Made by a program: the position numbers and the translations under genes | NCBI GenBank assembly: GCA_018812485.1 | Contig: JAHJDO010000033.1 | Coordinates: 22,435 to 86,434 of the forward strand | Origin: a bacterium | GTDB taxonomy: Bacteria; JAHJDO01 | Length of the DNA stretch: 64,000 nucleotides | Direction: 5' to 3' | Notes under the pieces: generated by a model | The model's input: the letters and a program-made list of their open reading frames with translations, nothing else | Databases searched by the model: none | Told to the model about the DNA's origin: nothing | Shown here: positions 11,598-41,136 of the stretch, one piece after another | How positions within the stretch are numbered: the stretch's first letter is position 1 | Layout of the letters: each line of letters starts with the position of its first letter

Positions 11598-13254
11598 TTT
11601 TCTTAATTTCCAGCAGCTTTTTCATAACGTGATATAAGTTCTCACTGTACTTCTTTGTTCCAAAGCTATCATGCAGATTTTTATAAAGCTCATATAATTT
11701 CTTATAGATCAGGTGATTTTTCCTGTTTGGATAGTATATTTTCTTTCTGGTGTCACACATATTCTTTTGAGCTTTCTCAGCTGTGGAATACACTCCTCCG
11801 ACAACTGCCCCAAATATTGCAGCACCAAGGGCACAAGTTTCATGGGATTTTGATATTAACATTGGTTTTCCAATTACATCTGCATATATCTGCATAAACA
11901 ATGGGTTTTTAACTGTTATTCCCCCACAGTTGATTACTTTTGAAATCCTGATGCCATATTCTTCTATTCTCTCAATAATTTTTAGAGCACCAAAAGCAGT
12001 AGCTTCTATAAGCGCTCTGTATATTTCCCAGCGTGTAGTTTGCAGGGTCTGTCCTATTAGTAGTCCTGTGAGTTCTGCATCAACAAGTATCGTTCTATTA
12101 CCATTGTTCCAGTCAAGCGCCAGAAGACCACTTTCTCCCGGTTTCGCTCGAGAAGCATCTCTAGTTAGTTTATCATGATATTTCGAATCTTCCTCGCAAA
12201 CTTTACTAACAAACCAGTTCAGAATATCCCCCACAGCTGACTGTCCAGCCTCTATACCAAAGCAGCCTGGCAATACCGAGCTATCAACCATACCACACAC
12301 ACCCGGAATATCATCTATCTTCTGCCCCTTATGTGAAACCATTATATCACATGATGAGGTTCCTATTATTTTCACAAGAATATCTTTACCAACGCCTGCA
12401 CCAACTGCCCCCATATGTGCATCAAATGCACCCACTGCAACAGGAATTCTGCTGGAAAGCCCAAATCTTTTTGTGTATTTATCGGATAAATCTCCTGCTT
12501 TTGTGTTTGAAGCATACGCTTTCTCATACAGTCTTGCGCGCAAATCTGCCATTTGAGGATTAAGCTTTGAGAGAAATTCTTTATCAGGTAATCCGTGCCA
12601 CTTGTCATTATACATTGCTTTATGCCCTGCGGCACATATGCATCTTTTAATTTTAGTTACATCTGTGATTCCACAGATATACGCAGGCATAAAGTCAGCA
12701 AGCTCTACCCATGAATAAGCAGCATCAAACACCTTCTTGTCAATATTCAGACAATGCCATATTTTTGAAAAAAACCATTCAGAGGAATATGTACCACCGC
12801 ATTTTCTGAGATATTGGGGTCTTATACATTCTGCTATCTTAGTTATTTTTTGAGCTTCTTCCATGGATGAATGATCCTTCCAGAGCCATGCCTGAGCATT
12901 TAGATTATTCTTGAATTCCGGAAGAAATGCTAAAGGAACAAGTTCATTTGTGACAGGTATAGGCGTAGAGCCTGTAGTGTCTATTCCTATCCCTACAATA
13001 TTGTCTCGGGAGAAATTCTTGTCTTTTTTTGCTTGTTTAAGAAGTTTTGTAACTACATATTCGAATCCTTCTATATAGTCATAAGGGCTTTGTCTTGCGA
13101 CATTCGGATCTGCTTTATCCAGCAGGATACCATTCTCTCCTCTGGTGTAGTTAAAAACCGCCGATGCAGCATCCCTGCCATTAGCTGTATTTATTAGTAT
13201 GGCACGAACAGAATTTGTTCCATAATCAATACCTATTGCAAATTTATTTTTCAT
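11590..13254 (-). CDS. araB: Ribulokinase (FGGY carbohydrate kinase)
   Basis: 554 aa; N-terminus AIGIDYGTNSVRAILIN and overall AraB-like length; overlaps araD by 8 nt. Confidence 0.8.
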   Translation of the reverse strand: MKNKFAIGIDYGTNSVRAILINTANGRDAASAVFNYTRGENGILLDKADPNVARQSPYDYIEGFEYVVTKLLKQAKKDKNFSRDNIVGIGIDTTGSTPIPVTNELVPLAFLPEFKNNLNAQAWLWKDHSSMEEAQKITKIAECIRPQYLRKCGGTYSSEWFFSKIWHCLNIDKKVFDAAYSWVELADFMPAYICGITDVTKIKRCICAAGHKAMYNDKWHGLPDKEFLSKLNPQMADLRARLYEKAYASNTKAGDLSDKYTKRFGLSSRIPVAVGAFDAHMGAVGAGVGKDILVKIIGTSSCDIMVSHKGQKIDDIPGVCGMVDSSVLPGCFGIEAGQSAVGDILNWFVSKVCEEDSKYHDKLTRDASRAKPGESGLLALDWNNGNRTILVDAELTGLLIGQTLQTTRWEIYRALIEATAFGALKIIERIEEYGIRISKVINCGGITVKNPLFMQIYADVIGKPMLISKSHETCALGAAIFGAVVGGVYSTAEKAQKNMCDTRKKIYYPNRKNHLIYKKLYELYKNLHDSFGTKKYSENLYHVMKKLLEIKKNA

Positions 13255-15730
13255 GAGTTAATTCCTCAAATTTGCTTAATATTTCTCGATACATAATTGT
13301 CCACTTACCCTTATTTGAGCTTTTTAATATCTCCTTCTTTCTTCCTGGAAGAGTAACTTCCGCAGTTATTCCCTGTGGGAGAGAGAGATAAGTCTTTATT
13401 CCCGCCTTTGTCCTTTCCCATCCGCTTTCAATAATTCCTTTAGGAGTTGCTACTTTGCCTCTAACAAAATTTACACAAGTGAAAGTAGGAGAAAAACAAA
13501 TTTTGTTCCACCCAGGACTCTTCTGCCAAATTCCAAGCAAAATATTACTTAAATGAATAATAGGATGAGCAGACCAGGCATGACATAAACTTTCCAAGCC
13601 CGGTTTCGCATTCCAGACTTCTTCTGTAGTACTTAAACCTTTTGCCACCATTTCACCCCACCACCTGTAAATACAATCTGCTACTTCTTCCATGCATCCA
13701 CATTTTTTAAGTGCCTCGAAAATATAGTGCATAAAGAAGGGTGAAGGAATCCCTTTAGCCCCTTTGGCTCCTTCTGCTTGAGGATAGTTCTGCTTAACCA
13801 GAGGAAGAAGGTATTTTTGCACAAAAAGTTGGTGGTATTCTGGAAACAAATCCAGAAGTATAGCCAAGGAGTAAATGTGAGGTGTATTTTCCACCACCGG
13901 CTGATTATTCCAAGACAGCCCTCCATAGAGAGTTTGGGTTTTCCTGTTAAACAGCATTTTCTTGATAGCATTTAGTAAACTTCTTTCTCTCCGACTATAT
14001 AGCTGTACGAGTTTTTCTTCACCTGCTTGCTCTAATAGCTTAATTGTAGTCCGTAGTGCCATTAAATAAAAAAGATTGTATAGCGTAGAATAACCATCCT
14101 TAAAAAGGGGAGACCAATCTAAGAAAAGCGCATATCTATTGTCATAACTAATTAGTCCATTTTTACCTGTCATCTGGAAAAAGTAATCAAACGCTTCATA
14201 AATTTTATCCTTCATTTGCTTGAATAAAGACAAGTCAGCCGTCTGCCAGTAGTAGTCCCAGTGAGTGATAATCCACGTAAGAGTAAAATCTGGTAAAATG
14301 CATCCATGCGCAATGGTCGGAGCGTGTCCGTATGTAAGACCATTAGGTACTTTTTGAGTTCCTATCTGCTTAATACCCCTTTTGAAGAGTCTTTCATCTG
14401 CCGACAGATAAAAAGTATTCTTTGCTTGAATTCTAGCATCACCCCACCATTGAGCTTGCTCTCGCCAAGGACAATCAACATATGCATCCTGCATACAACA
14501 TTGTTGAGTCCACGTGCTCATTTTGTAGATTTTGTTGAGTCTTTCATCAGAAGATTGAAATTCTGCTTTTATCTGTAAAGGGTAACCTACTGATCGGAGT
14601 TTTAACTTTATAGTCAGTTTTTGCTTACTATTTCTAACGATAAGAATTAGATAACGAAATCCCCAGTAATCAAACTGTTCGTATTCGGTTTTTCCAGCTC
14701 GCAGAAATAATCTATTCCCAAAAGCTACCTTACATCCTACCTTAGAGGAATATATTATTGGAGAAAAATTTTCCTTCCCTTCACAGATCATGGTATCAAT
14801 TATTTCACCCCCCTCTCCATTTTCTACATTTAGTAATAATGAACCTACAAATTCCTTTCCAAAATCTATCAGGTATCCCCTATAATCTCTTTCACTAGTA
14901 GCCGGAACTTGGAAGCGAGCCCAATTATCATCTTTTGTTAGGATATTAGTTGTATCGTACCAATTCTTTTCCTCTTCCAAAAAAAGGCTTACTACATTAG
15001 CTATCTTTTCATAATCTACTTTACACTTACCTTTAGTCTCCGAGATTAGTTTATCAGGTATAGCTATAGTCTCTTTCAACAAAGGAATCTCTCTCTTTTC
15101 AAATGAATACCAGGGCATAGAACCAAAATTTCTACAACGAGGATTGTCCCAACTAGAATCATCGTAATCTGAAAGTACCCAAGAATCATCCAGCCTAGCA
15201 TCAAAGAATTCCTGAAATCCTAATTGTAGTGATACACGAGTCGTTACTCTCTTATAACCAGGAGCAATGCGAACTCTCCAACTCTGATTTGTGGATATTT
15301 CTTCATCATCTGCCTTACCTGCTAACAAAAAACCTGCATACCCTTGATGAATGTATTGAAAAGTACTAATCCCCAGATTATGCACCAGAGCGGCAATCAC
15401 ATTTCTACCCTTCTTTAAAAAAGGGGTAATATTCACGTTGTCATAGGACCAAGATTCCTGAAAACCTCGAGCTGGGCCTCGATTAATATAGATACCATTT
15501 ACATAAAGCCGATATTGAGTATCAGCAGTAACGTAAACTATGGAAGTCTTTGGGACCTTTTTTAAATAAAACGTTTTTCTGGTTTGCATCCATGAATTAA
15601 CTAAATCATAGCTTGGACTATCGTACCATATCCATTTGGCACTTTGTACAAACTTCCGGAAATCAATTAAAGTTCCTGGATCTTCGTTCCAATTTATGTA
15701 TGATTGTGTTTTTCTATTAAGTTTCGACAT
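13244..15730 (-). CDS. Alpha-L-rhamnosidase (GH78)
   Basis: 828 aa; N-terminal ...SAKWIWYD... and six-hairpin motif YVDCPWREQAQWWGDARIQ (GH78 DCPxRE...WxGD signature). Confidence 0.75.
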   Translation of the reverse strand: MSKLNRKTQSYINWNEDPGTLIDFRKFVQSAKWIWYDSPSYDLVNSWMQTRKTFYLKKVPKTSIVYVTADTQYRLYVNGIYINRGPARGFQESWSYDNVNITPFLKKGRNVIAALVHNLGISTFQYIHQGYAGFLLAGKADDEEISTNQSWRVRIAPGYKRVTTRVSLQLGFQEFFDARLDDSWVLSDYDDSSWDNPRCRNFGSMPWYSFEKREIPLLKETIAIPDKLISETKGKCKVDYEKIANVVSLFLEEEKNWYDTTNILTKDDNWARFQVPATSERDYRGYLIDFGKEFVGSLLLNVENGEGGEIIDTMICEGKENFSPIIYSSKVGCKVAFGNRLFLRAGKTEYEQFDYWGFRYLILIVRNSKQKLTIKLKLRSVGYPLQIKAEFQSSDERLNKIYKMSTWTQQCCMQDAYVDCPWREQAQWWGDARIQAKNTFYLSADERLFKRGIKQIGTQKVPNGLTYGHAPTIAHGCILPDFTLTWIITHWDYYWQTADLSLFKQMKDKIYEAFDYFFQMTGKNGLISYDNRYALFLDWSPLFKDGYSTLYNLFYLMALRTTIKLLEQAGEEKLVQLYSRRERSLLNAIKKMLFNRKTQTLYGGLSWNNQPVVENTPHIYSLAILLDLFPEYHQLFVQKYLLPLVKQNYPQAEGAKGAKGIPSPFFMHYIFEALKKCGCMEEVADCIYRWWGEMVAKGLSTTEEVWNAKPGLESLCHAWSAHPIIHLSNILLGIWQKSPGWNKICFSPTFTCVNFVRGKVATPKGIIESGWERTKAGIKTYLSLPQGITAEVTLPGRKKEILKSSNKGKWTIMYREILSKFEELTHEK

Positions 15731-15794
15731 AATATTCTCCTATCCAATCCCAAATTTTTTGTACATTTTCTTTAGCAACGTTTTTTGCCATTTG

Positions 15795-16940
15795 CTAGTA
15801 TGACTCTAAATTCCTGTCTTTAACTTTAAAATCAGGTATTTTGAGCATTTTCCCACCTTGAACTATTGATTCTCTTGCATATATTCCAGGCAGGGTGTAA
15901 TTTAGCGCAGCATTTAAACCTATAACGGGTTGCCGATTACTTCTTATGGCAGATATGAACTCTGTGAGCATCCAATATTCAGTTGTACCATGACCCCCGA
16001 GTTTCATTTCTTTTTTCACTTGAAGTCGCTCGGGAATATACTGACGCATAAAATCATCTAAATCTGTCCATGTGTGTTTAGATGATCGCAAAGAGGGGTT
16101 TTTTGTTTCAGCAAGCATTATTCTTGGTTTGTCGCTAAATCCACGCCCGCTTTCAAAAGCACCATGAGTTCCTTGCACGCCATAAAAGTGCAAAAAAGGT
16201 CGCGGAGATGCTAAATCTACCCTTACCCGGATTATTCTCCCCTTTCTAGTATTCATGAACATTGTATGATTAAATTCAGGACAAAGTTCATGGTCTGGAT
16301 CTATGAGTTTTGTAGAATTGCAAATACATGAAACGCGTTCAACACTGTCGTTGAGGATATAGAGTAAGGGACCAAGGCTGTGCGTGCAATATACCCCTAA
16401 TTCTCCCCTTCCTCTCCATGTCAAATCCCCCTTTTTATTTCGCCATAGATACTTACAATCATGTACATATTCAGCTTCTGCATAGTAAATATCTCCGAAG
16501 AACGCTTCGTCTACAAGTCTTTTAACCAATTCGATGTCGTTACGAAAACAGCAATTTTCTGCAATCATATAATAGGCACAACTTTTTCTTTCAGCTTCAA
16601 TAAGTGTGTCTATTTGTTTTATATTTACAACTGCTGGAACCTCTGATAACACATGAATATCTGCTTTGAGCATAGCAATAGCTTGTTCTGTATGAAATTT
16701 TGGTGGTGAAGAAATTACAACCGCATCTAATCCTGAATTTAAAAAGTTTGTAAAATCAGTAAACCAACGAGGTTCATGTTTTCCCTGTGTGTCAAATTTT
16801 GTGTTATTTCGAACTATATCATAGACAGCTGTCACTTCTATATTTTTTAAAACGCTCAATTGTTTTATTAGACTATTGCCGCGACGATGCTCCTTATTGC
16901 CTGCCCCAATTATACCAAACCGAATTGTATTCTTGTTCAC
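15795..16940 (-). CDS. Gfo/Idh/MocA-family NAD(P)-dependent oxidoreductase
   Basis: 381 aa; Rossmann N-terminus IRFGIIGAGNKEHRRGNSLIKQLSVLKNIEVTAVYD; GTG start. Confidence 0.8.
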   Translation of the reverse strand: MNKNTIRFGIIGAGNKEHRRGNSLIKQLSVLKNIEVTAVYDIVRNNTKFDTQGKHEPRWFTDFTNFLNSGLDAVVISSPPKFHTEQAIAMLKADIHVLSEVPAVVNIKQIDTLIEAERKSCAYYMIAENCCFRNDIELVKRLVDEAFFGDIYYAEAEYVHDCKYLWRNKKGDLTWRGRGELGVYCTHSLGPLLYILNDSVERVSCICNSTKLIDPDHELCPEFNHTMFMNTRKGRIIRVRVDLASPRPFLHFYGVQGTHGAFESGRGFSDKPRIMLAETKNPSLRSSKHTWTDLDDFMRQYIPERLQVKKEMKLGGHGTTEYWMLTEFISAIRSNRQPVIGLNAALNYTLPGIYARESIVQGGKMLKIPDFKVKDRNLESY

Positions 16941-16952
16941 GACTTATTTTTT

Positions 16953-19607
16953 CTATCCAAGCTCAATAGTTACTATTTGACTTTCCCCCGCCTTAAAATA
17001 AACTACATTCTCATCCACAATATTTAAATCCTTAATCACTTCCTCGTTCATTTTAACTAACCTTGCCTTTTCTATCTTTTTATAAAACTGTAATTTCCCC
17101 TGAATCTTTTTTTGGCTAGTATTAAATAACCGTATTATTAAGGAATCTTTATCTTCCGCTTTCTTAACGGCACTGATTATAAGTTCCTCTGGCTCAATAG
17201 AAATAAAACTCATTTCACAGGGTAAACTGCCCTTGTGCTCAGTGGTTTGCAACACCCTTTGTTTTATATTGTGTTGATAAGCCAAACGAAATATATTATT
17301 GACTTCCAATTCCTTCTCATGGAGAGCTATGGCATACTCAAATCTATGCTTGCCAATGCATTGAGCTCCTGGAGTAAAGGGAGCATCAACCTTTATGCAA
17401 TTTCCATCCTCCTTCATTATATAAAAATCTTTATTATAAAGTTTTCCTATACTTCTAAGAAGACTTAAATTTAAAATAGTCCCTTGTTTATTTTTAATTG
17501 CTCTATAACAGGGTAAACCCCTATTTATTATCGTCAAACCCCATTTATTATCCTTTATACTAACAAATGATTGTTGAGGCCATATTGGTTCTGGAGGTTT
17601 TGCCCATCTTTTCGTTTTTAGAAGTAGTATATTTCTTCTTACTAAATCAAATTGACCTTCCGCAAAAGTATATCGAGCTTTGATATTTGTGGGAAATCTA
17701 ACCATCAACCAATGGTCTCTGGCTTTATTATCTACTTCAGTTATTACATCAATGCGTCTACTACCTGTAGAAAGACTTATGTAACTTACTATTGAGCAGG
17801 TTATCAGTCTATTACTTCTACTCTTTTTATTCTTGGTTAGACTTCCGGGAAGTAAGAGACGCATATCAATCTTAAAAGTTATCCGCACTGGACCCTTTTC
17901 AACAAGACGAATAGAAACTTTTTTTGGATTCAGTATCTTCCTATCCAACAATGGGTTAGAATAATTATATAAGTCACCAGCATCTCCAATATCTTCAAAA
18001 CAATGCATATTTTTATGTCTAGCCTTAGCAATCTTGTCTAATATTGTCAGAGTTCCATTTTCGTTTATATTAACTCTAAAAAACTCATTCTCCATCATAT
18101 GGCCTTTTACTTTTAGAAAACTGGGGAATTTAGGTTGAGTTTGGACTGGTCTTACTCGATATATTTTATAGCCAAGGGCAGGAACATCTCTGGATAAAAA
18201 TACCGCATTTATTTTTTTATCATCCTGTTTTGTATATATTTTCTGCCGTCCAGTCATGTTTTGTTGAGTAATTATTTGATAAGGGATAGTATTCCCTGCT
18301 AAATCTTCTATAACAAAATATCTAACTTTGGGATCTGAAATACATATGGTAGCTTCAGCTGTATCAGTTCGTTTCCATGACAATGGATTAAATGTTACCA
18401 ATACAAGCTTTCCTTTTTCTTTTATTTTTTTATTGCCTTGAAAAGTATTTATCTTTTGAACAATTTTCTCCAGGTTAATCCATGTAATCTCTTCAGCAAT
18501 CTGTCTAGCTGAGTTAAACCTACTTACTACATCTTTGTCCACTTCATCAATACTACAGCCACAAATACTATCATGAGCATGATTTTTTAAGAGATATTTC
18601 CATGATTGCCATAAAAAATCCTTAGGATAATCCATTCCTAACGACCAAGCAAAACTCGAAAATGGTTCAGCCCATTTCTCTAAGAGAGATTGCACTTCTT
18701 CGTTTTTCTGCTTAATCTCTACTCTAGAGGACAAAGTTCCCGGATAGATTTCTCTCTTTTTAGTCTTTCTTAATTCTCCTTTAATAATTTCTAATCTTGG
18801 TCTATACTCCTTAATTTTGCTAATATACAATGGTAAATTCGACTGGATTGTCTTATCGTTATTTAATAACCTATTAGCTCCTTTGATAATTTCTGGTAGT
18901 CCTTCTTGAGGTAGAAGATGGTCACATCCTTTCATTAACAATACATTCGGAGTTGTTGCTAGAGGAATTATTTTATCTTTAATATTTTTAATTATCTTTA
19001 ATACACTTTCTGAATTGTAAGGAAGATTACCTGATCTTAAAAGGTCAGTGGCATTCGAATATCCTGTAACCAGGTACACTGCCAACACTTTTGAACCGTC
19101 TGGAGATTTCCAGAAAAATTCTGTCCCAACTTTATGCTCCCCTTCTACACCCCGAGATAATACAGCACTATTGATATTAAATCCAAATAATATTTGGGGC
19201 ATTTGTGAAATATGTCCAAACATATCCGGAAGATATCCTATTTCCATTACCCAGCCAAATCTTTTAGCGATTTTATGTCCTAGAAGGAGATTCCTTACTA
19301 GAGATTCTCCGCTTACTAAGAATTCATCCGGCAGTGTATACCATGGACCTACTAACAATCTACTCTGCCTGATATATTTCTTAAGCTGCCTTTCTCTCTC
19401 TGGCTTTAGTTCTAAATAATCTTCTAATATTACCGTTTGCCCATCAAAAGTAAAATACTTAAAATCGGGGTCTTGATCAAACAGTTCTAATATTTTATCC
19501 ATGCATGTTACCAATCTTATTCGAAACTCTTCAAATGTTCTGTACCATTCCCTATCCCAATGGGTATGAGAAACAACATGCATCTTATATTTTAATACAG
19601 TTTTCAT
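16953..19607 (-). CDS. Alpha-mannosidase (GH38)
   Basis: 884 aa; GH38 N-terminal catalytic-domain signature HVVSHTHWDREWYRTFEEF...VGPWYTLPDEFLVSGESLVRNLLLG. Confidence 0.85.
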   Translation of the reverse strand: MKTVLKYKMHVVSHTHWDREWYRTFEEFRIRLVTCMDKILELFDQDPDFKYFTFDGQTVILEDYLELKPERERQLKKYIRQSRLLVGPWYTLPDEFLVSGESLVRNLLLGHKIAKRFGWVMEIGYLPDMFGHISQMPQILFGFNINSAVLSRGVEGEHKVGTEFFWKSPDGSKVLAVYLVTGYSNATDLLRSGNLPYNSESVLKIIKNIKDKIIPLATTPNVLLMKGCDHLLPQEGLPEIIKGANRLLNNDKTIQSNLPLYISKIKEYRPRLEIIKGELRKTKKREIYPGTLSSRVEIKQKNEEVQSLLEKWAEPFSSFAWSLGMDYPKDFLWQSWKYLLKNHAHDSICGCSIDEVDKDVVSRFNSARQIAEEITWINLEKIVQKINTFQGNKKIKEKGKLVLVTFNPLSWKRTDTAEATICISDPKVRYFVIEDLAGNTIPYQIITQQNMTGRQKIYTKQDDKKINAVFLSRDVPALGYKIYRVRPVQTQPKFPSFLKVKGHMMENEFFRVNINENGTLTILDKIAKARHKNMHCFEDIGDAGDLYNYSNPLLDRKILNPKKVSIRLVEKGPVRITFKIDMRLLLPGSLTKNKKSRSNRLITCSIVSYISLSTGSRRIDVITEVDNKARDHWLMVRFPTNIKARYTFAEGQFDLVRRNILLLKTKRWAKPPEPIWPQQSFVSIKDNKWGLTIINRGLPCYRAIKNKQGTILNLSLLRSIGKLYNKDFYIMKEDGNCIKVDAPFTPGAQCIGKHRFEYAIALHEKELEVNNIFRLAYQHNIKQRVLQTTEHKGSLPCEMSFISIEPEELIISAVKKAEDKDSLIIRLFNTSQKKIQGKLQFYKKIEKARLVKMNEEVIKDLNIVDENVVYFKAGESQIVTIELG

Positions 19608-19682
19608 AATGTTTAGAGCATCCGTTACAGTATAACTATAATATTACAGCCATTCGATAATTTTTTATTAATTTTTTTGTCA

Positions 19683-20777
19683 TTAGATATCCGGTTTTGT
19701 AGTCATAACTACTTCTCTCAATTGTTCCATGAAATAGCGATAATTATCCCAACTAACATCAGATAAAACAAAATGATCCGGGCCAGGAATGTAGCGCCCC
19801 TTATGTATCAGCTCACGAGCCTTATCTATTTCAACATCAATTTCTCTCTTCCCTTTAGCCATGACATTCTTATCTAATCCTCCTATGACTCCAAGTTCAG
19901 GAAATCTATCCAAAACTCTACTAACATTATTTCCCGCCTGTACTTCGTAGGGGTAAAGGGTGGTCACACCACTCTCCAACATAAGTTCTGTAATATCCTC
20001 AATGTATCCGTCCGAATCGACTAAGATAATTTTGATTCCATGCTCCTTTGCAAAGCACGCGATCTTAAGATAATTTGGCTTCATAAATTTCCGGAACATC
20101 TCAGGAGAAATGAGAGAACCATTCTTTGAAGCCATATCTTCCCAGCACTCGATCAGATCAAAATCGACATCAGCTAGCATCTTGCTCCATATGGAAATAG
20201 CCATGTCTGTGTACGAGTCCATAATGTCATGGACAAGTTCAGGGTCATCATAGAAGGCATATGCAAGATTCACATCACCCATCATGTCGCGGGCAAAGCC
20301 GTATACACCCCTATGGGTCAACTGAAGTGGATAATCACGTGTGTGGAAGCGAGCAACATGTTCTGGCCAGTCCTTTGGAAATCGCTCCGGGTCTTCTGCC
20401 TGCAAATGACGTTCCTTTACTCGATACCAATCCTTTCGGTTCTTTACGGGCCATTCTATCGTCTGAGAATAATGGTTAGCACCCTTTTTAATGATCCTAA
20501 CAGTACCGTCTCCACGGCTCTGAACTATCTGGGAATTATTTTCCTCTATTACTTTTACATCATCTAATTGAGAAGTTCTCATGTTTACACAAGTTCTCTG
20601 CCAACCACGATATTCTCCTTCAAACTGCAGAATTTCATCAATGCGTTCTGCAATGCCAGAGTATTCCTTTTCCCATCCAGACACAATGGCGTTTGTGCCT
20701 CCAAAAACCTTAATAAAAGGCACACGATCTACTTCTTGACCTGTTAATGTTTTTACAAAACGTTCCCGATGATTCAT
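19683..20777 (-). CDS. Uroporphyrinogen decarboxylase (URO-D)/MtaA-family (beta/alpha)8 protein of unknown substrate
   Basis: N-terminus MNHRERFVKTLTGQEVDRVPFIKV matches the URO-D-family start (M..RERv.aaL.Ge.vDRvP). The C-terminal block ...GVIGGLDKNVM...GRYIPGPDHFVLSDVSWDNYRYFMEQL parallels HemE GNMDP...[25 protein letters not shown]. The alternative longer start at 20864 has RBS GAGGAA but would overlap the upstream gene by 79 nt. Confidence 0.55.
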   Translation of the reverse strand: MNHRERFVKTLTGQEVDRVPFIKVFGGTNAIVSGWEKEYSGIAERIDEILQFEGEYRGWQRTCVNMRTSQLDDVKVIEENNSQIVQSRGDGTVRIIKKGANHYSQTIEWPVKNRKDWYRVKERHLQAEDPERFPKDWPEHVARFHTRDYPLQLTHRGVYGFARDMMGDVNLAYAFYDDPELVHDIMDSYTDMAISIWSKMLADVDFDLIECWEDMASKNGSLISPEMFRKFMKPNYLKIACFAKEHGIKIILVDSDGYIEDITELMLESGVTTLYPYEVQAGNNVSRVLDRFPELGVIGGLDKNVMAKGKREIDVEIDKARELIHKGRYIPGPDHFVLSDVSWDNYRYFMEQLREVVMTTKPDI

Positions 20778-20785
20778 AAGACTAG

Positions 20786-23700
20786 TTATAGGTTTATCTC
20801 TACAATGTATTTCTGATATTCGGTTTTGGGAGATAATTTCAAGATTCCATTTTCTACTGGGCATAGAAATTTCCTCGGCTCTCCCTCCTCGTTATAAGCG
20901 GTAACTTTTATTTCTCGACCGGGTTGATAGTTAGATAAAACAGCTTTAAGATTCAAGCTCAGTTCATAACATCCTCTCTGAGGACCGGGGTCAACACCAA
21001 CACAATCCCTATTTAAGACTTCAGGCACATAATCAAGCTTCATTCTCAAATCACCCACAGGTATTATCTCTATCATATTTTCATTTTTCTTAATCAATAC
21101 AGAACCTTTTATCGAACCAAGATTGGGAAATTTAATAAGATTATCTCTTGTATCAATATATATATACTCGGGCGAGTCAACATAATCTATTTTATGGCCA
21201 TCGACAAGCGCAGAATATTCTAATATTTCACCTTTTTTGCCGGCTACAAAACCTGCTTCCGGCAATGAATATTCTCTCCCAAAGAGAGTTACTTTCCACT
21301 GTTCTTTCGAGCCATAATTTATATACATCTCAAGGCCATTCTTATACCGAATATGAAGGCGACTTTCTTTATAGATGTCTTTGGCTATAGCTTCGCTGGT
21401 TGAGTAAAAATTCTTGCCGTCACTGTACTCTATACTCTCTACCTGATCTGCAATGTAATATTTCTGCAACTGCTGAAACATGCAATAATATTTTATTCTG
21501 GCGGAAAATTCCCATGGAGTTGCAAGCAAGGGAATCATTCCTTGATGGCCATATGCTATCGTTGCGGTAATATATTTATCAAAATATATGTCCCGGCCTT
21601 TATTATCCACAAAAATATCATCAGCTCCTTCTCCCCATCCCTTACCAAAAAAAAGCCCCGCAAAAGATGCCATGCCAATTCCAAATTGTAATGGATGAAG
21701 CTTCAAAAGGTCAAAATCAACAAGAAGCGGTTCTTCAAATGGCTTTTCAGGGAAAAATATGGTCGCAAAATCTCCGTCTGTTAAGCCGGCAAACATCCAG
21801 CGCATTCTTCCCTCACTAACTACAATACCTATGTTCTTTTTTGCTTCCAGGAAAAGCTCTCCCCATGAATTAAATATGGCTTTCATCATCGCTGCATCCG
21901 GGACTCTAGCATCGTAATCAATAAAATAACTGGGATTTATATTTGTATGAATATCAAAGTAGCAGATGCCAGTATGAAATTTTCTCCCTACAATCTTTGT
22001 GAGCTTTTTTGAAAGTAAATAATCATAAGGTGGTCTTACATTGTAATTACATTGCCAATGGTAATTTAGCTTCATAGAACCATCCTGATTACGTGCAATA
22101 ATATCTTCATTCCAATATTTACTATTTGTGCCGATCTCTGTATAACCTAAAAACATTCCGAATATATAACCAAGGCTTCGAACATATTCAGAGTATTCCG
22201 ACATTCTTTTATCACCATAATCTGGTCTTACAGTATCACAAAAAAATCCACACCTATTAGGAATTTCTTCGAAGCTCATCCATTGTTCACCATGATGCCA
22301 TGTCATTATATGGTCTAAACCGTACTTCTTTAAAGTCCCCCAGTATCCCGGTCTCGATGCTCCCCCACCAGTCCAGTTACACACATATTTACTGGCAAGT
22401 TCAAGATATGGGGAAGGGGGGTTTGGTATATTAGGCAATACCTCTTGAAAATCAGGAGACACCGTAATAAACAAACGTTCAGCCAGATTATTATAACTAC
22501 CATCGGTTTTTCTTTGATAACGCGTCCCTCCACTATAAATCGCTTCGTTATCTGAAATTAACTTGCTATCTCCATATAAAACAGAGCAATTTGAATTGTA
22601 CCAATCGATTAAAGAAAGCACAAATAGTCCATCACCATAGACAACATGTGGGCCAGCAGCATACCTGCAATCCTGGCCGCTAATACCTAAATAGGGGACC
22701 TTTATTAACCTTAGATTATTTAGTCCTTTGACACGACCGACTTTAAACTCAATAGCTTTCCCGGAATCAGACTTAACATCTGCTATGAGTGATTTTCCTT
22801 TTATTTGCAAGGATAATGTATGTTGAATAACCTCATCTCCTATTTTCCACGCCCATTTGGTATACAATATTTCATTATCTAAAATTTGAGAAATTAATCT
22901 TGCTTTTATTTCCTCATTACCAGGGGCAATATCAGCGAACTGCTTTCCTATTACTATGCCACCTTCTAAGTTAGTATTAAAAGGTTTCTTATCTTTCCAT
23001 GATACTTGAATATCTGACAAGGTCCCGTCTTTAGGAGCATATAGATATACCAGCCTGCCGTCATCACCCTCATAAATAAATTTATAGACTAGTTCTTCCT
23101 GCTCTACCTTATTTATATACCTTTTTGCGCAACCGGGTAAAATAGTATCCTCAGTCGTCGGGAATTTTCCACTCTTAACCAATTTGGGAATATCTAGTTT
23201 AGATTTTTCTTTATAAAATGACAATGAATCCAGATAGACTGTTTTTTTTAATGAACCTTTCTGCTGAGATTCCCCTCCTGTTCTTACAATAATACTAGTC
23301 AATTTTGCAGGGAAATCAATCTCCCCATTTTTATCTCCATCCCAGCTTTTAAATGTTTTGCCGCCTCCTTCTCCTCTCCATCTATGAGGCAAATACATTT
23401 TATGATATAAACGCCAATTTTCTCCAATTAAAGGGCTCATAATTACGTTATGAAATTCATTCCCTGCATCCTGCACAATTATTTCGATTTCCCCTTCCTT
23501 TCCATAATTTTTAGACAATTTCGAATAAACCCAAATTTCAACTGAATCAAAGCTATCCTGAATAGGTATAGGATGAGGAGGCAACAACTCAACATAACCA
23601 CAATACTTCTCAAAAGTAATCTTACAAACAGAATTATCCCATATTCTTACCTCCCGAGAACGCCCAGCTCCTGCCTTTGCTCCATTATGGCAGAGGATCT

Positions 23701-24601
23701 TCCAACCTTCAAGATCTTCAAAATCCACAAGCTCTTTGTGCGAAGATACGTTTCTGCCTGCGGTAATAATATCATAAGGCCTCTCTCCTACATCCTCAGA
23801 CTTACTTATTTTATTTTCAACAAAATCATTTTTATTTTTATTATTCGATCTTACCAATAGCGGACTAAAACTCCGAGCTTTTTTCGATATCATTACTTCA
23901 TCAATAATACCATCAAACATTTGCATGCCTTTATATAATGACCCTATGTATAAATCCTGATCTGTTTCTTGTAATGTACGTATCTGGGCTAGTTGTCTTA
24001 CGACTTCACCATTTTTATAAAGAGTGATATTTGTCCCATCAACCGTAGCCGCTACATGGGCCCATTCTCCAGCATTAATTATCGGCTTACCTATTGTGTG
24101 CTTACCTATTGAAAACACTTCCTGACTCTTACCCTCTTTGCCAAACATATAAAAGTCAAGTTTTCCATCCCAAATAGAAAGGCTATAATTAACTGTCTTT
24201 ACCATGCAACTTCCATGATTTAATATATAATGACGGCCAGAGACATCATTTGGTTTTATCCAGGCTTCAACTGTCAGTTCTCCTGTGAGATCTAATGCAT
24301 CATGATCATTTACCTTTATATATCCCTTACTATCTGGTTTAAACTCAATTGCTTTTCCAAACTTACCTTCTATCCATACGGGTTTTGGATTACCTTCCCA
24401 ATGTCCATTTAGATTATTTGTTCCCGAATCTAGAATCTTGCTACCATTTCCCTCATCAAAGTGCCATAGAGCTACAGTATCCTTATCTGCTTTTGGAGCC
24501 TCTAATAATGGCATATCCTGAGCAAACACTAGATTAATATTAAAAACTACTGTTAAAACAATAATGCCAATCCCTCTAAAAACTACATTCCTTTTCTTCA
24601 T
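20786..24601 (-). CDS. Large secreted protein (1271 aa) with an N-terminal signal peptide and a LamG / concanavalin-A-like domain; remaining ~1000 aa unassigned (candidate novel carbohydrate-active enzyme)
   Basis: ATG at 24601 with a perfect RBS GGAAGGAGAGATT (the track start 24616 is an in-frame TTG). Signal peptide MKKRNVVFRGIGIIVLTVVFNINLVFAQD. LamG-like block LWHFDEGNGSKILDSGTNNLNGHWEG...GELTVEAWIKPND...EWAHVAATVDGTNITLYKNGEVV. No other motif recognised. Confidence 0.7.
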   Translation of the reverse strand: MKKRNVVFRGIGIIVLTVVFNINLVFAQDMPLLEAPKADKDTVALWHFDEGNGSKILDSGTNNLNGHWEGNPKPVWIEGKFGKAIEFKPDSKGYIKVNDHDALDLTGELTVEAWIKPNDVSGRHYILNHGSCMVKTVNYSLSIWDGKLDFYMFGKEGKSQEVFSIGKHTIGKPIINAGEWAHVAATVDGTNITLYKNGEVVRQLAQIRTLQETDQDLYIGSLYKGMQMFDGIIDEVMISKKARSFSPLLVRSNNKNKNDFVENKISKSEDVGERPYDIITAGRNVSSHKELVDFEDLEGWKILCHNGAKAGAGRSREVRIWDNSVCKITFEKYCGYVELLPPHPIPIQDSFDSVEIWVYSKLSKNYGKEGEIEIIVQDAGNEFHNVIMSPLIGENWRLYHKMYLPHRWRGEGGGKTFKSWDGDKNGEIDFPAKLTSIIVRTGGESQQKGSLKKTVYLDSLSFYKEKSKLDIPKLVKSGKFPTTEDTILPGCAKRYINKVEQEELVYKFIYEGDDGRLVYLYAPKDGTLSDIQVSWKDKKPFNTNLEGGIVIGKQFADIAPGNEEIKARLISQILDNEILYTKWAWKIGDEVIQHTLSLQIKGKSLIADVKSDSGKAIEFKVGRVKGLNNLRLIKVPYLGISGQDCRYAAGPHVVYGDGLFVLSLIDWYNSNCSVLYGDSKLISDNEAIYSGGTRYQRKTDGSYNNLAERLFITVSPDFQEVLPNIPNPPSPYLELASKYVCNWTGGGASRPGYWGTLKKYGLDHIMTWHHGEQWMSFEEIPNRCGFFCDTVRPDYGDKRMSEYSEYVRSLGYIFGMFLGYTEIGTNSKYWNEDIIARNQDGSMKLNYHWQCNYNVRPPYDYLLSKKLTKIVGRKFHTGICYFDIHTNINPSYFIDYDARVPDAAMMKAIFNSWGELFLEAKKNIGIVVSEGRMRWMFAGLTDGDFATIFFPEKPFEEPLLVDFDLLKLHPLQFGIGMASFAGLFFGKGWGEGADDIFVDNKGRDIYFDKYITATIAYGHQGMIPLLATPWEFSARIKYYCMFQQLQKYYIADQVESIEYSDGKNFYSTSEAIAKDIYKESRLHIRYKNGLEMYINYGSKEQWKVTLFGREYSLPEAGFVAGKKGEILEYSALVDGHKIDYVDSPEYIYIDTRDNLIKFPNLGSIKGSVLIKKNENMIEIIPVGDLRMKLDYVPEVLNRDCVGVDPGPQRGCYELSLNLKAVLSNYQPGREIKVTAYNEEGEPRKFLCPVENGILKLSPKTEYQKYIVEINL

Positions 24602-24634
24602 AATCTCTCCTTCCAAATTTTTCCATATTTCAAT

Positions 24635-25489
24635 TTATAACCATTTCTCCCGCACTATGACTGATGCCTGTAAAAATTCTTTAATATCAGCGTATTTTTC
24701 TACTGATACCTCTAACATAAAAACCCCATCATATCCTATATCCTGTAATGTTTTTATCACCTCCTCCCAGTTAATATTTCCCTCTCCAGGCATTAAATGA
24801 GAATCTTTTTGACCATCATTGTCGTGTACATGTAAAGCAAATACTCTGTCATTGCAAGAGTTCATTATTTCTTTTGTATATCCACACATATTTGTATGCC
24901 CGATATCTACGAGTACACCGAAACAGTCAGAGTCAAATGTATCTAATAACTCACGGATTTCTTCTATAGTATCTCCCAGATATGTTCTGTTTTCAGTACG
25001 TGGAGGCATTGTCTCAATAGCAACTTTAATATCTTTTGCCTCGCAGTACGTTATAATAGTTTCCAGACTCTTTTTGCAGTTCTCAAACCGTCTATCTCTG
25101 TTTTCTGCGATAGGAAAGGGAGTAGATAGATGAAAGGTAAGCATTGGCCTATCAAAATCCAAAAAAATGTCAACCCAGCTTTTTAAATGATTAATGGCAT
25201 CCTTTCTTTGCACATTATCTATAGATGAAATATCTATTTTGTTTTCATATCCTGTCGCATGTATATGTGTTATTTTTACACCATGCTCTTTTAGTCTTGT
25301 TTTTAAACTAGTCATGTATCCATTATCTGTGTAGTAGCAATGTGGCAGCACCCTTTTTCCTATCTCTATATTTTTTATCCCATATTTAGCGACTAGTGGA
25401 ATGCTATCTAGAAGGTCATTGTTCCACCACCATGCAGAGACACCAAATTTAAATATTTCTTTATCCATATTAGAACTTTTTAGTTTCAA
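24635..25489 (-). CDS. Sugar phosphate isomerase/epimerase (xylose-isomerase-like TIM barrel)
   Basis: 284 aa; ...FGVLVDIGHTNMCGY...VFALHVHDNDGQKDSHLMPGEGNINWEEVIKTLQDIGYDGVFMLEV, typical of the AP-endonuclease-2 / xylose-isomerase-like fold. Confidence 0.75.
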   Translation of the reverse strand: MKLKSSNMDKEIFKFGVSAWWWNNDLLDSIPLVAKYGIKNIEIGKRVLPHCYYTDNGYMTSLKTRLKEHGVKITHIHATGYENKIDISSIDNVQRKDAINHLKSWVDIFLDFDRPMLTFHLSTPFPIAENRDRRFENCKKSLETIITYCEAKDIKVAIETMPPRTENRTYLGDTIEEIRELLDTFDSDCFGVLVDIGHTNMCGYTKEIMNSCNDRVFALHVHDNDGQKDSHLMPGEGNINWEEVIKTLQDIGYDGVFMLEVSVEKYADIKEFLQASVIVREKWL

Positions 25490-25491
25490 AG

Positions 25492-26826
25492 TTACACTAG
25501 TGCTTTATCTTTCATAAGGTTATCCCGGAGTAAGTTAACATCAAGTTTTAAAGGTATTAGGTGGTTTTTTATACATAGACTAGCTGCTGTACCTGCTGCC
25601 TGCCCCATTGCCATACATACTGGCATAACTCTATATGAACCCATAGCTTCATATGTGCCTGAAATACATCTACCAGCTACAATGAGATTTTCTACTTTTT
25701 GAGGTATAAGAGAACGATAAGGTATTGTATAATAGGTGCCCTTTTTCAAAAAATGGTATTCAATCCCTTGCCCTTGAGGATTATGAATGTCTATGGGATA
25801 TGCACATCTAGCTATAGCATCCTTGAAATGTCTAGCTTTCAAAAAATCATCCTTAGTTAACGTGTACTCTCCTCTGATTCTGCGTGTCTCTCTTATCCCC
25901 AGATTTACAGCCATATCTATAATATAGCTATTCCTAAAACCAGGTACATATTTGCGATAAAAATTGGCTATAAATAGGTTTTGATTTCTGGCCAACAAAT
26001 AGGATTGAGTTAAAGAATCGTTATCTATACCATCCACACGGACTCTTGAAATATTTATAAATACTTGTCCTTTAATAGGAAGTTTGGAGACACCAGATTG
26101 AAATCTTAAGTTTTCAGCATTTTGAACAGGAAATTCTCCTCTTGCCAGAGCTTCTTTATATAACTGTTGAAATTTTTCCCATGAGACAGCTTTGTATTCA
26201 TCAAAGTTTACATTGCCCATCCTAAAACAAAGCGTTCCCGCCTGTAACAATTTTCTATTTTGGGACCAACCCTTTCGGCATGGAACACCACTTAAAAAAG
26301 CAACATCTGCATCACCTGTAGCATCTATGAATATTTTTCCCTTAATAGCCTGAAAGCCTGATTTGTTCCAAACTATTATAGTGTCTATAGTTGATTCTTT
26401 TACTATTGCCTTACAAAAGACCGATTGGAACTTTTTGATAACTTCTGTTTCATTCAGTAATTTAAGAAGAACAGTTTGTAACATTTCTTTGTCAAAGGAA
26501 AGACCTACATCCTTTCTAAAATCACCCAACAAACCTCCAACTTGTCTCATGCGATTAACAATTTCTAAAGGAATCCCACCTATAACAAGATTGCCTTTGT
26601 TATCGTTGTATTGAAGAAAAAGTTGAACACCACCAACTGTTGCCATTCCACCAACAATTGCATATCGTTCAACCAAAACTACTTTAATCCCATTCCTGGC
26701 AGCAGCTATAGCTGCTGCGCACCCGGCTGGGCCACCACCTATTACCACGACGTCTGTGTTTAACACCACGGGAACTCTAGTATTCAAAGACACCAATTTA
26801 TGACCTTTTTTTATGGAATAACCCAC
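25492..26826 (-). CDS. FAD-dependent oxidoreductase (glycan-locus-associated FAD_oxidored type)
   Basis: 444 aa; dinucleotide-binding N-terminus [43 protein letters not shown]. Confidence 0.75.
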
Positions 26827-27428
26827 CAGCTACTCTCCGTATCTTCCTGAGTGTACCAATCAACGTGACCGTCGAAGAAAAGGAAATTTGCTCCATTGTT
26901 ATGAACATAACTAACCTGACTACTATTGGCCATTCGATAGCGTGCAGCTCCTGCAGCCTCAAATCCTCCATCACTCACTGCAACTTTATCGCTGGGAATA
27001 CTAATCCGGCCTAACCTAAACTGCTGATTTTGATTGGGCGAACAATCTGCATTACCGAGATAGGCATTGTAGGCATAATTGACATTGTATGTTCCGAAAG
27101 CTCCAAGGTCCTTATTGCTTTGACAAAATAACAATGATGGTACATTCTTTAGGTCTACCTTCACTCCGTACGGCTCTAAGCATCTATACCAGGTTGCACC
27201 AGACCAAGCCATTGGTACATAGTCATCCCAGTCTGATGCGTACATTATGAGCATCTGATGAACTTGTCTTAGATTACTGATGCATTTTGCACGTCTTGCC
27301 ATCTCTCTTGCCTTGCTAAGTGCCGGGAGCAGCATACTGGCAAGCAAGCCGATAACTGCAATCACGACCAGGAGTTCTAAAAGCGTAAATCCGACACATC
27401 CAAACTTATCCCTCACCCATTTCATCAT
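26811..27428 (-). CDS. Prepilin-type N-terminal cleavage/methylation protein with C-terminal H-X9-DG motif (DUF1559 family)
   Basis: Prepilin leader and hydrophobic helix [36 protein letters not shown]-terminal [16 protein letters not shown] (H-X9-DG). RBS GAGGAGGG. Confidence 0.8.
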
Positions 27429-27482
27429 AATTTGTTCCCTCCTCTTTCTTTCGGAGACAATTATAGCATATAACGGACAACC

Positions 27483-28532
27483 TTAGTACAAAAGTGGTTT
27501 GTAATTTCTTGCATATTTTTTTATTAAAGTAGACTCTCGAACTACTAACTTAGTGTCAAGGGTAATATTTTCTGGCAGACTATCTTTATCTCCTCCCATA
27601 CGCTTTAATAATAACTCGGCAGCAAGTCGACCTTGCTCATACTTGGGCTGATTTACTGTGGTAAGAGGAGGATTCAAAAGAGCCGCCACGTATATGTCGT
27701 CAAATCCAACCAGAGCTATATCCTTAGGTATTTCTTTCCCTCTCTCTTTTATAGCTATCATCGCACCTATAGCTATTACATCATTAGCAGTAAAAATAGC
27801 TGTTGGTGGTGCCTTCATTCTTAAAAATTTTTCTATTCCTCTATAACCACTCTCTTGAGTAAACCCATTCTCTAAAATAAGTTTTCTGTCTACTAATAAA
27901 TTATGTTCAATTAAGGCTTTTCTATACCCTTCTTCTCGCTTTCTGCCAGTTATTATCTCAGACGTACCATTAATAAATCCTATCCGATTATGACCTAGTT
28001 CAATAAGATGAGAAGTAGCTACATAAGCACCTTCTAAGTCGTTAACAAAAATACGGTCTAATAGCAATCCATTTTCCTCTCGTTGGACTAAGACAATAGG
28101 GATATTTTCTTTCATAATTTCGTTAAGAACTTGAGTGGTTTTTTCATCCTCTTTCATCTCTGCACATATAAATATTATTCCATCTAATCGTCTTGACAAG
28201 AAAGTCCTTAGTATACTTTTCTCTTCTTCTGGATCATTGTAGCTATTACCTAAAATAATGTGATAAGCACTTTCTTTTACTCTGTCATAAACACCCTTAA
28301 TAACAGGCGGATAGAAAAAATTAGAAATGTCAGAAATTAAAACTCCTATAATATGAGTCTTCTTTGTTATCAAAACTTGAGCAGTATAATCAGGAATATA
28401 ATTTAGTTTCTTAGCTGCCCTTTCTATGCGACAGCGCGTATCTTTCTTTATATATCCTTTATTATTAAGACAGCGAGAAACTGTGCCACGAGAAACTTTT
28501 GCTTCTTTTGCTACATCGTAAATAGTTATCAT
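27483..28532 (-). CDS. LacI-family transcriptional regulator
   Basis: 349 aa; HTH MITIYDVAKEAKVSRGTVSRCLNNKGYIKKDTRCRIERAAKKLNYIPD plus a periplasmic-binding-fold sugar-sensor domain. Confidence 0.9.
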   Translation of the reverse strand: MITIYDVAKEAKVSRGTVSRCLNNKGYIKKDTRCRIERAAKKLNYIPDYTAQVLITKKTHIIGVLISDISNFFYPPVIKGVYDRVKESAYHIILGNSYNDPEEEKSILRTFLSRRLDGIIFICAEMKEDEKTTQVLNEIMKENIPIVLVQREENGLLLDRIFVNDLEGAYVATSHLIELGHNRIGFINGTSEIITGRKREEGYRKALIEHNLLVDRKLILENGFTQESGYRGIEKFLRMKAPPTAIFTANDVIAIGAMIAIKERGKEIPKDIALVGFDDIYVAALLNPPLTTVNQPKYEQGRLAAELLLKRMGGDKDSLPENITLDTKLVVRESTLIKKYARNYKPLLY

Positions 28533-28636
28533 ATTCTATGAAATCGATTTTCTTATTTAGGGCTATTACACTGCATTTAATAAAAAAATAGCATATCTCT
28601 GAGATATTGTCAAGTATAAAATCGTTTTCATAAATA

Positions 28637-33897: not shown

Positions 33898-33963
33898 AAA
33901 ATCAACATAACACACAAGTAATTGTTTTTGCAAATTCTTTGCAGCATTGGTAGAATTGCGAAT

Positions 33964-41035: not shown

Positions 41036-41136
41036 CCGTTCTCCAGCTTTCTTGTGTCACGTATGTATTCTAATTTTATAAGAAGATATAAACAATGGGG
41101 ATTCTGCGGGTGGATAATGGGTATATAAAATACCCG

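Follow-up and report, generated by a model that had tools for sequence, protein, structure and literature searches.

The uroporphyrinogen decarboxylase (UroD) superfamily is associated with haem decarboxylation and with methyl transfer that depends on zinc or a corrinoid. Its members comprise UROD itself, MetE, epoxyalkane:CoM transferase and the corrinoid methyltransferases (PMC10418091). Here, we describe two genes in a 64-kb stretch of bacterial DNA (contig JAHJDO010000033.1 of assembly GCA_018812485.1; the whole stretch is called the window below, and loci fetched from other metagenomes and genomes carry L-numbers). ORF1 (19683..20777, minus strand) encodes a 364-residue protein and ORF2 (28637..29713, minus strand) one of 358 residues, and both lie within a carbohydrate-catabolic gene array, a setting that an initial annotation of the window had recognized. 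Our preferred reading, to which we give a probability of roughly 0.4, is that the two are cytoplasmic TIM-barrel enzymes from the MtaA/MetE side of the superfamily, neither HemE nor canonical corrinoid:thiol methyltransferases, which carry out a metal-dependent conversion of sugars. The superfamily and the fold were known before; what is new is a conserved subfamily of PF01208 with a rebuilt active site, together with a large sister family for which Pfam has no model.

The closest described system is the group of MtaA, MtbA and MtsA (4AY7/4AY8), which share with both proteins a (beta/alpha)8 barrel of the UroD type and metal-ligand positions that are in register. The zinc ligands of MtaA and MetE are a His-x-Cys motif, the Glu of V-E-E and the Cys of P-G-C-G. 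Despite the common barrel, sequence identity amounts to only 11-15%, and the His-x-Cys, Glu and Cys of MtaA have become Asp-x-Asp, Glu and His in ORF1 and His-x-Asp in ORF2. Moreover, neither family has an invariant Cys, the window lacks a corrinoid partner, and ORF1 contains a beta-rich N-terminal segment (residues about 59-108, by DSSP on the predicted model) that is specific to its family. The zinc site of MetE occupies the same barrel positions. MetE and MetE-like proteins, which belong to the same superfamily (PMC10418091), form the third tier of structural matches, with E values near 1e-3 for ORF1.

Both genes are real and lie where the initial annotation had placed them, although it gave no strand; plus-strand readings of the two ranges are riddled with stops, so the genes are on the minus strand. 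The minus-strand translation of ORF1 contains both peptides quoted in that annotation, MNHRERFVKTLTGQEVDRVPF and GRYIPGPDHFVLSDVSWDNY. An alternative start at 20864 was rejected in favor of 20777, because the longer frame overlaps the end of the neighboring LamG gene, most of 120 homologues are 361-371 residues long, and all aligned members begin at MNxRERF. The proposed membership of the URO-D/MtaA family held up well. ORF1 matches PF01208 at 55.9 bits against a gathering threshold of 23.9 (E 4.5e-15), a threshold that ORF2 does not reach, but the match covers residues 170-355 only, that is, profile positions 164-345. A direct sequence search of the PDB with ORF1 gave nothing useful, and a profile of its own family barely reaches MtaA (E 0.03). 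A broader profile, built from ORF1 relatives and the UroD-like paralogues of sugar loci, matches MtaA over its full length at E 5e-33, HemE at 5.5e-16 and CdmB (9RUI) at 2.9e-15. The AlphaFold2 model of ORF1 (pLDDT 92, pTM 0.90) finds MtaA (4ay7/4ay8) and UROD as its top Foldseek matches, with E values of 1.6e-10 to 1e-6 and 11-15% identity; TM scores run from 0.46 to 0.68 across these matches, are at least 0.53 for the ten best and lie at 0.60-0.68 for the top hits. By these profiles and the predicted model, ORF1 is a UroD-superfamily barrel and falls within the UroD/MtaA/MetE structural superfamily.

ORF1 also belongs to a widespread and tightly conserved family. A word-indexed search found 665 relatives, of which the best 120 are 62-82% identical and essentially full-length; the hosts include Phycisphaerae, Sumerlaeia, Anaerolineae, Omnitrophota, Armatimonadota and KSB1. 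Where the databases name these proteins, they are called 'uroporphyrinogen decarboxylase family protein' or 'hypothetical protein'. A genome scan located orthologues at 77 loci in at least 12 phyla (60-82% identity), all in records titled as metagenome-assembled genomes (MAGs) or uncultured isolates except for one metagenome chromosome assembly. In an alignment of 34 members the mean column identity is 70% and 77 columns are invariant, a conservation comparable to that of the window's ribulokinase across phyla (58-62%). Judged from these alignments, the ORF1 family is a very strongly conserved and mislabelled PF01208 subfamily with an Asp/Asp/Glu/His site.

Could ORF1 simply be the organism's HemE, the uroporphyrinogen decarboxylase proper? 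Such an identity would account for the PF01208 match and the UROD fold, and the likeness extends to ORF2, all of whose Foldseek matches at E<=1e-3 are UROD. Nearly everything else speaks against it. No NCBIfam hemE model matches ORF1 or ORF2 at E<=0.01, nor was a full-length hemE equivalog match found, and ORF1 is only 11-15% identical to solved URODs. The N-terminal substrate-binding segment of HemE carries an Arg-rich motif after the first helix as well as the catalytic Asp; this segment was not found in ORF1, whose Pfam match starts only at profile position 164, and after DRVPF the ORF1 family reads IKVFGGTNA..., without an Arg-rich motif. UROD is metal-free, whereas ORF1 and ORF2 keep a ligand-rich site, and their context is sugar catabolism rather than tetrapyrrole synthesis. 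Domain scans covered all 54 window ORFs of at least 150 amino acids plus one of 142 (33505..33933), leaving aside ORFs nested on the opposite strand inside larger genes (3297..3782, 29945..30538, 40548..41081, 41267..41806, 45620..46108 and 61934..62404); among the scanned ORFs there is no tetrapyrrole, cobalamin, corrinoid-protein or araA gene. The embedding of ORF1 in a sugar operon and the tandem arrays of UroD paralogues at other loci likewise argue against a haem enzyme. The initial annotation had thought a haem role unlikely, and with no hemE model, an unmatched N-terminal URO-D half and no tetrapyrrole gene in the 64 kb, we regard HemE identity for ORF1 as effectively excluded, its probability being negligible.

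ORF2 is the more distant of the two relatives. It has no match in Pfam (E<=0.01), NCBIfam or PDB sequence searches, and the profile of its family alone finds nothing in the PDB. Pairwise BLAST between ORF1 and ORF2 is not significant, and their kinship becomes visible only by profiles and structure. An hhalign comparison of the two families gives a probability of 72% (E 3.3e-5) over 146 columns, and the ORF1-family profile alone touches a single ORF2-family ORF. When a profile was iterated over a database of 1484 ORFs using ORF1 relatives and paralogues, with ORF2-family members never admitted, it recovered 79 of the 81 ORF2-family ORFs, the best at 2.9e-15 and the window's ORF2 at 1.9e-7. The AlphaFold2 model of ORF2 (pLDDT 92.5) has 14 Foldseek matches at E<=1e-3, every one of them UROD (best 5.5e-9); the next match is at 7e-3. 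The looser resemblance that the initial annotation had noted in ORF2 is thus borne out by structure and by the ORF2-free profile, but a PF01208 match is absent, and on both the profile and the modelled fold ORF2 is a more distant member of the UroD superfamily.

The ORF2 family is large. A word-indexed search returned 169 relatives, all without a Pfam domain, while HMMER over 1.84 billion representatives (clusters at 50% identity) found 3311 at E<=1e-3 and 1045 at E<=1e-30; the best 150 of the 3311 are mostly about 345-390 residues long. There is a second ORF2 paralogue (81% identity) whose locus-tag prefix, KKC91_, is shared with the exact database match to the window's ORF2, and the source genome probably has two copies of the gene. 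The N-termini of ORF1 and ORF2, read directly and with no predictor, lack the hydrophobic stretch expected of a signal peptide, and both proteins are probably cytoplasmic.

In the ORF1-family profile, D254-S-D256-G aligns with L-H-I-C-G of 4ay7, and in the broader profile E278 falls on the first Glu of V-E-E and D334-H335 on G-C of P-G-C-G. Because these residues align with the zinc ligands of MtaA, ORF1 retains the site as Asp/Asp/Glu/His. D254, D256, E278, D334 and H335 are invariant in 75 of 75 family ORFs, as are E210, E213, D214 and K303, and H155 is kept in 72 of the 75. All of them lie at or just past predicted strand ends in the AlphaFold2 model (by DSSP), with Glu210, Glu213 and Asp214 on a neighboring strand. 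In ORF2 an invariant H263-L-D265-G (His263-x-Asp265-Gly) aligns with HxCG. At the zinc position, other UroD-like genes from the fetched loci have HxCG, HxDG, DxDG, HxHG or MxDG, and in a few the motif is lost altogether. Neither ORF1 nor ORF2 has the MtaA-type His-x-Cys...Cys (+ Glu) site. The alignments show that the zinc-ligand position is kept in both proteins but chemically rebuilt with harder ligands, and we infer from this that the metal bound there may be a harder divalent ion (Mn2+, Mg2+ or Fe2+, for example).

A mechanistic analogy is provided by the xylose-isomerase-like isomerases and epimerases, which are likewise TIM barrels with an Asp/Glu/His divalent-metal site at the strand ends; the metal sites of xylose isomerase are Glu/Glu/Asp/Asp and Glu/His/Asp/Asp. 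These enzymes belong to a different superfamily, however, and no motif was found to be shared with them. The Foldseek similarity of ORF1 to such barrels is weak and generic (E about 1e-3).

The initial annotation had suggested methyl transfer, perhaps as a sugar O-demethylase. In this explanation ORF1, ORF2 or both would be MT1- or MT2-type enzymes that shuttle methyl groups between an O-methylated sugar (4-O-methyl-glucuronate, 2-O-methyl-fucose and 6-O-methyl-galactose are candidates) and a corrinoid protein. Among solved structures, MtaA is the nearest to both ORF1 and ORF2, and the paralogue profile matches CdmB (9rui, E 2.9e-15). The superfamily includes O-, S- and halogen-demethylases (PMC10418091), and the UroD paralogue arrays at some loci resemble the multi-paralogue systems of OdmB, VdmB and CdmB. 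Those demethylases, unlike the window's proteins, work with an adjacent corrinoid protein and an activase, and they act, so far as is known, on aryl methyl ethers or chloromethane rather than on sugars. A tblastn search with the corrinoid protein of L005 found a corrinoid protein near 1 of 71 ORF1 loci (one genome) and near 1 of 80 ORF2 loci. In the window it gave no match, and the scanned ORFs contain neither a B12-binding Pfam domain nor an activase, tetrahydrofolate-methyltransferase or B12 gene.

In the one ORF1 case, an Omnitrophota genome, the orthologue adjoins a B12-binding corrinoid protein with a GDLHDIG motif of the DxHxxG type (L005 10001..11931, the same locus as L084 and L006), and in the one ORF2 case (L095 7464..8887) a corrinoid protein with the same motif lies beside an ORF2 relative and a UroD paralogue; L005/L006/L084 and L095 were the only matches. 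At L169, in addition, an ORF2 relative sits amid six PF01208 genes and an MttB-family gene, and mtaA itself is frequently unlinked from mtaBC. Against these points, the thiol-methylating branch is defined by a zinc His-x-Cys...Cys site that is missing here, neither family has an invariant Cys, and the MtaA/CmuA-family NCBIfam models score ORF1 far under their cutoffs (50.1, 37.8, 37.7 and 30.4 bits against 244, 400, 235 and 600). An alkoxide is also a poorer leaving group than a phenolate. With the corrinoid partner so rare, the suggested sugar O-demethylase fares badly, and we consider it improbable. Neither polysaccharide-locus members of the UroD family nor corrinoid demethylases acting on sugars turned up in the literature that we searched.

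We return to the preferred reading, a metal-dependent conversion of sugars. The enzymes would use the divalent metal to act on a sugar or sugar acid set free in the cell, by isomerisation, epimerisation or elimination rather than by thiol methyl transfer or pyrrole decarboxylation. ORF2 would act with the GH4 enzyme encoded directly before it, on the GH4 product. This gene (29714..31036, minus strand) encodes an NAD-dependent glycosidase of the MelA-like alpha-galactosidase subfamily (PF02056 and PF11975; NCBIfam PRK15076, 522 bits against a cutoff of 486), and its stop codon abuts the ORF2 start with zero gap (TAA-ATG, read directly from the sequence). The enzyme could free L-arabinose, for example from a beta-L-arabinopyranoside, since beta-L-arabinopyranosidases occur inside alpha-galactosidase families (PMC8056906). 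ORF2 would then turn L-arabinose into L-ribulose for the ribulokinase AraB (11590..13254, minus strand; NF003154, 640 bits against a cutoff of 428) and the L-ribulose-5-phosphate 4-epimerase AraD (10905..11597, minus strand; NF006047, 360 bits against 257), as a non-homologous stand-in for L-arabinose isomerase (AraA).

The case for this step comes from related loci. L167 is syntenic with the window, including the same DnaJ-DnaK-GrpE-HrcA flank, and reads prepilin / giant / GH4 / ORF2 / araB / araD with gaps of 26 nt and 3 nt; its GH4, ORF2, AraB and AraD are 90%, 78%, 89% and 85% identical to those of the window. L087 reads GH4 / ORF2 / araB, the contig ending inside araB, and neither locus has an araA gene. 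L167 (10001..13436) lacks the 9-gene block from LacI to the GH78-like gene. Because ORF2 and araB are joined directly there, the window can be viewed as the same outer genes with this block, ORF1 included, inserted between ORF2 and araB. The arrangement at L167 and L087 leaves an isomerase-shaped gap that ORF2 might fill: ORF2 stands beside araB, where an isomerase is normally encoded, even though it has no homology to AraA or FucI-like isomerases in sequence or fold and no Pfam match. ORF2 together with araB/araD and no other isomerase is found at L167, at L087 up to the contig end and, loosely, in the window, but not at most of the 80 other loci.

How constant is the isomerase slot in comparable operons? 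At L171 and L172, where the AraB relative is 88% identical, araB-araD has neither an isomerase nor ORF2 beside it. At L173 (8001..11831; AraB relative 69% identical) araD is followed by a 470-residue protein that matches only Fucose_iso_C (PF02952) and is not canonical AraA. At L174 (8001..11140; 68%) the contig breaks off within the gene after araD, for which there is no Pfam record. Both loci have GH51 arabinofuranosidase genes upstream. Since L173 carries a FucI-like type, the isomerase slot beside araB-araD is variable.

Of the 80 metagenome loci with ORF2 relatives, 5 have GH4 next to the ORF2-type gene, 5 a UroD paralogue and 1 an araB-like gene. The commonest neighboring family is URO-D (6 of 130), and there is no conserved partner. 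In the closest subgroup (at least 60% identity) the neighbors are GH4, genes for CUT1/CUT2 sugar ABC transporters and sugar-type regulators, and the pairing of GH4 with ORF2 recurs at L167, L087, L088 and L093.

Production of L-ribulose by ORF2 is the most economical reading of these arrangements, yet a weak one, argued by analogy: the link to araB is restricted to one lineage, araB-araD can stand alone, and the evidence is confined to loci. Several observations weigh against a sugar-converting role more generally. The ORF2-araB association is seen in that single lineage (GH4 at 5 of 80 loci, an araB-like gene at 1 of 80), and two modules might simply meet at this point, araA being encoded at another place in the genome, as L171 and L172 would allow. 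Metal binding is inferred from ligand positions alone. To our knowledge, no enzyme of this superfamily isomerises sugars. ORF1 has no conserved partner across 71 loci, which leaves its substrate unconstrained, and its many invariant Arg and Lys residues would be compatible with an acidic substrate and with other chemistries as well.

Those Arg and Lys residues, fit for a carboxylate substrate, bear on a further alternative, in which ORF1 and/or ORF2 would strip CO2 from a uronate-derived or keto-acid sugar, giving for example a pentose or pentulose for AraB/AraD, in the manner of UlaD/SgbH in the ascorbate/L-xylulose route. A uronate or decarboxylating role had been suggested initially, on the strength of the family name only, and the name and the fold do agree with it. 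The GH4 family includes alpha-glucuronidases and alpha-galacturonidases, with the LplD structure 3fef among the GH4 matches, and an ORF1 orthologue at L001 keeps company with PdxA, GH4, KDPG aldolase and a sugar-acid dehydratase. The window operon, which combines araB/araD at its end with a ketose-3-epimerase-like barrel, resembles the gene sets of the yiaK-S and ula pathways. UROD catalysis, however, proceeds by protonation of a pyrrole ring and uses N-terminal Arg and Asp residues, and precisely that region of the URO-D profile is unmatched here. For an alpha-hydroxy acid to lose CO2 non-oxidatively it must carry a beta-keto group, which calls for a redox partner; no dehydrogenase is conserved next to ORF1 in the neighborhood survey, and the window AraB is a true ribulokinase by NCBIfam rather than a 3-keto-gulonate kinase. 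We therefore find little to recommend a decarboxylase, and rate it quite unlikely.

The neighborhood survey of ORF1 orthologues also argues against a fixed link to glycoside hydrolases. The question had been raised whether the orthologues always travel with such enzymes; they do not, nor with any other fixed partner. Their immediate same-strand neighbors comprise 64 proteins with 70 Pfam families, the commonest being URO-D paralogues (5), Pyr_redox_2 (4), MazE/AbrB (4), GFO (3) and GDSL (3). When 416 neighbors within four genes were clustered, the largest cluster reached 6 of 71 loci, and each of the window's own genes has homologues close to an ORF1 orthologue at only 0-4 of the 71 loci. A further 109 neighbors include HAD (4) and GFO (3), with sulfatase, esterases, fucosidase and glucuronoyl esterase at 2 each. 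Neighbors of this kind (esterases, sulfatases, fucosidases and glucuronoyl esterases across loci), combined with the Asp/Glu- and Trp-rich active-site face, are what one might expect of some other hydrolytic or lyase role on carbohydrates, such as that of a novel barrel resembling glycoside hydrolases, or of a beta-eliminase that, assisted by a metal, releases a substituent (methanol from a 4-O-methyl-uronate, for example). No GH- or PL-family motif was found, however, and the argument is based on residue types alone, so that such a role also seems a long shot.

Particular loci illustrate the range of contexts. In an Anaerolineae MAG (L001) the order is PdxA / ORF1 / GH4 / KDPG aldolase, with the sugar-acid dehydratase also in the locus; a Phycisphaerae MAG has LacI ... 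prepilin / giant / GFO / ORF1, and an Omnitrophota MAG giant / LamG / ORF2-like / ORF1-like. ORF1 is a separate, stand-alone family, which in the window forms part of a LacI-headed glycan-catabolic block with the LamG giant, GH38, GH109-like and GH78-like genes.

A more sweeping version of the preferred reading would have the two families form a previously unrecognised carbohydrate-acting branch of the UroD/MtaA/MetE barrels, in which the zinc-thiolate site has become an Asp/Glu/His site. ORF2-type proteins would be a new, non-homologous class of aldose-ketose isomerases that replaces AraA downstream of GH4, and ORF1-type proteins a second sugar-converting enzyme in uncultured glycan-degrading phyla. 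This larger claim we hold to be doubtful. If true, a sugar-acting branch would add a reaction class to a classic fold, and thousands of database labels would be corrected, those of ORF1 relatives from 'uroporphyrinogen decarboxylase' and those of ORF2 relatives from 'hypothetical protein'. Each family occurs chiefly in uncultured organisms that degrade polysaccharides (Omnitrophota, Planctomycetota, Armatimonadota, Anaerolineae, Kiritimatiellia, Lentisphaerota and others). A knowledge of the two reactions would close gaps in the picture of how these organisms channel sugars to central metabolism, and could explain how pentoses become L-ribulose where no AraA is encoded beside araB-araD.

Within the window, the two genes belong to a minus-strand array of 13 genes with intergenic gaps of 0-104 nt, assigned by domain and NCBIfam scans: GH4, ORF2, LacI, prepilin-like, FAD oxidoreductase, xylose-isomerase-like, LamG giant, ORF1, GH38, GH109-like, GH78-like, AraB and AraD. 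An AraC-family regulator (31155..31994, plus strand) is divergent from GH4. The best sigma-70-like site of the region, TTGACA-17-TATTTT with TG (28585..28613, minus strand), lies in the gap between ORF2 and LacI and is a consensus match only; the regional count of promoter-like sites is not above shuffle expectation, and that of terminator sites is not above chance. The 9-gene block (13244..28532) begins with the LacI-family regulator (27483..28532; Pfam LacI and Peripla_BP_3), followed by a prepilin-like protein with an N-terminal methylation motif (26811..27428; DUF1559/HX9DG in Pfam and NCBIfam) and a PF12831 FAD-dependent oxidoreductase (25492..26826; 402 bits), whose gene shares 16 nt with the end of the prepilin-like one. 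Next come a xylose-isomerase-like TIM barrel (24635..25489), nearest to ketose 3-epimerases and MJ1311, and a Laminin_G_3 giant of 1276 residues (20786..24616) that ends 8 nt before the ORF1 start. Beyond ORF1 lie a GH38 alpha-mannosidase (16953..19607), which is mannosylglycerate-hydrolase-like but under the cutoff of that model, a GH109-like oxidoreductase of the GFO/IDH/MocA type (15795..16940) and a GH78-like six-hairpin glycosidase (13244..15730), all on the minus strand. The placement of ORF1 between the GH38 gene and the LamG giant is thus as first described. GC content is uniform across the region (35-41%), and its profile gives no compositional sign of recent block transfer; no transposase was found in the block, and repeats were not searched for.

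UroD paralogues are arrayed in tandem at several other loci. At L003 (7687..11095 and 16054..17076) three tandem UroD genes and a fourth nearby lie amid ThuA, GFO/IDH/MocA, xylose-isomerase-like (AP_endonuc_2) and GH31 genes, and two of the paralogues have no ligand at all at the HxCG position (WMLT and LMVT). L169 (28..13087) and L170, from a Clostridia MAG (GCA_009618505.1), and also L092, have six PF01208 genes plus an ORF2-family gene. The L169 array is interleaved with GH3, a zinc alcohol dehydrogenase, a 1145-residue protein without a Pfam domain, an MttB-family methyltransferase and AP_endonuc_2, and its UroD paralogues differ in their zinc-position motifs (HxCG, HxDG, HxHG or none).

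Another recurrent arrangement, seen beside UroD-like genes in several phyla, is a prepilin-like DUF1559/HX9DG gene with a giant LamG/CBM9/GH123_N-like gene (1100-1300 residues). Such pairs occur in the window (26811..27428 with 20786..24616) and at L167 (4255..8522), L008 (3062..7353), L014 (1251..6793) and L050 (4293..7778), and the giants have no mutual BLAST similarity. Elsewhere in the window, a single protein (40181..41035) combines a PTS EIIA domain (PTS_EIIA_2) with PilZ and adjoins a PAS-PAS-LuxR regulator and a run of GT4 glycosyltransferases, and a second, small PilZ protein is encoded at 38510..38962.

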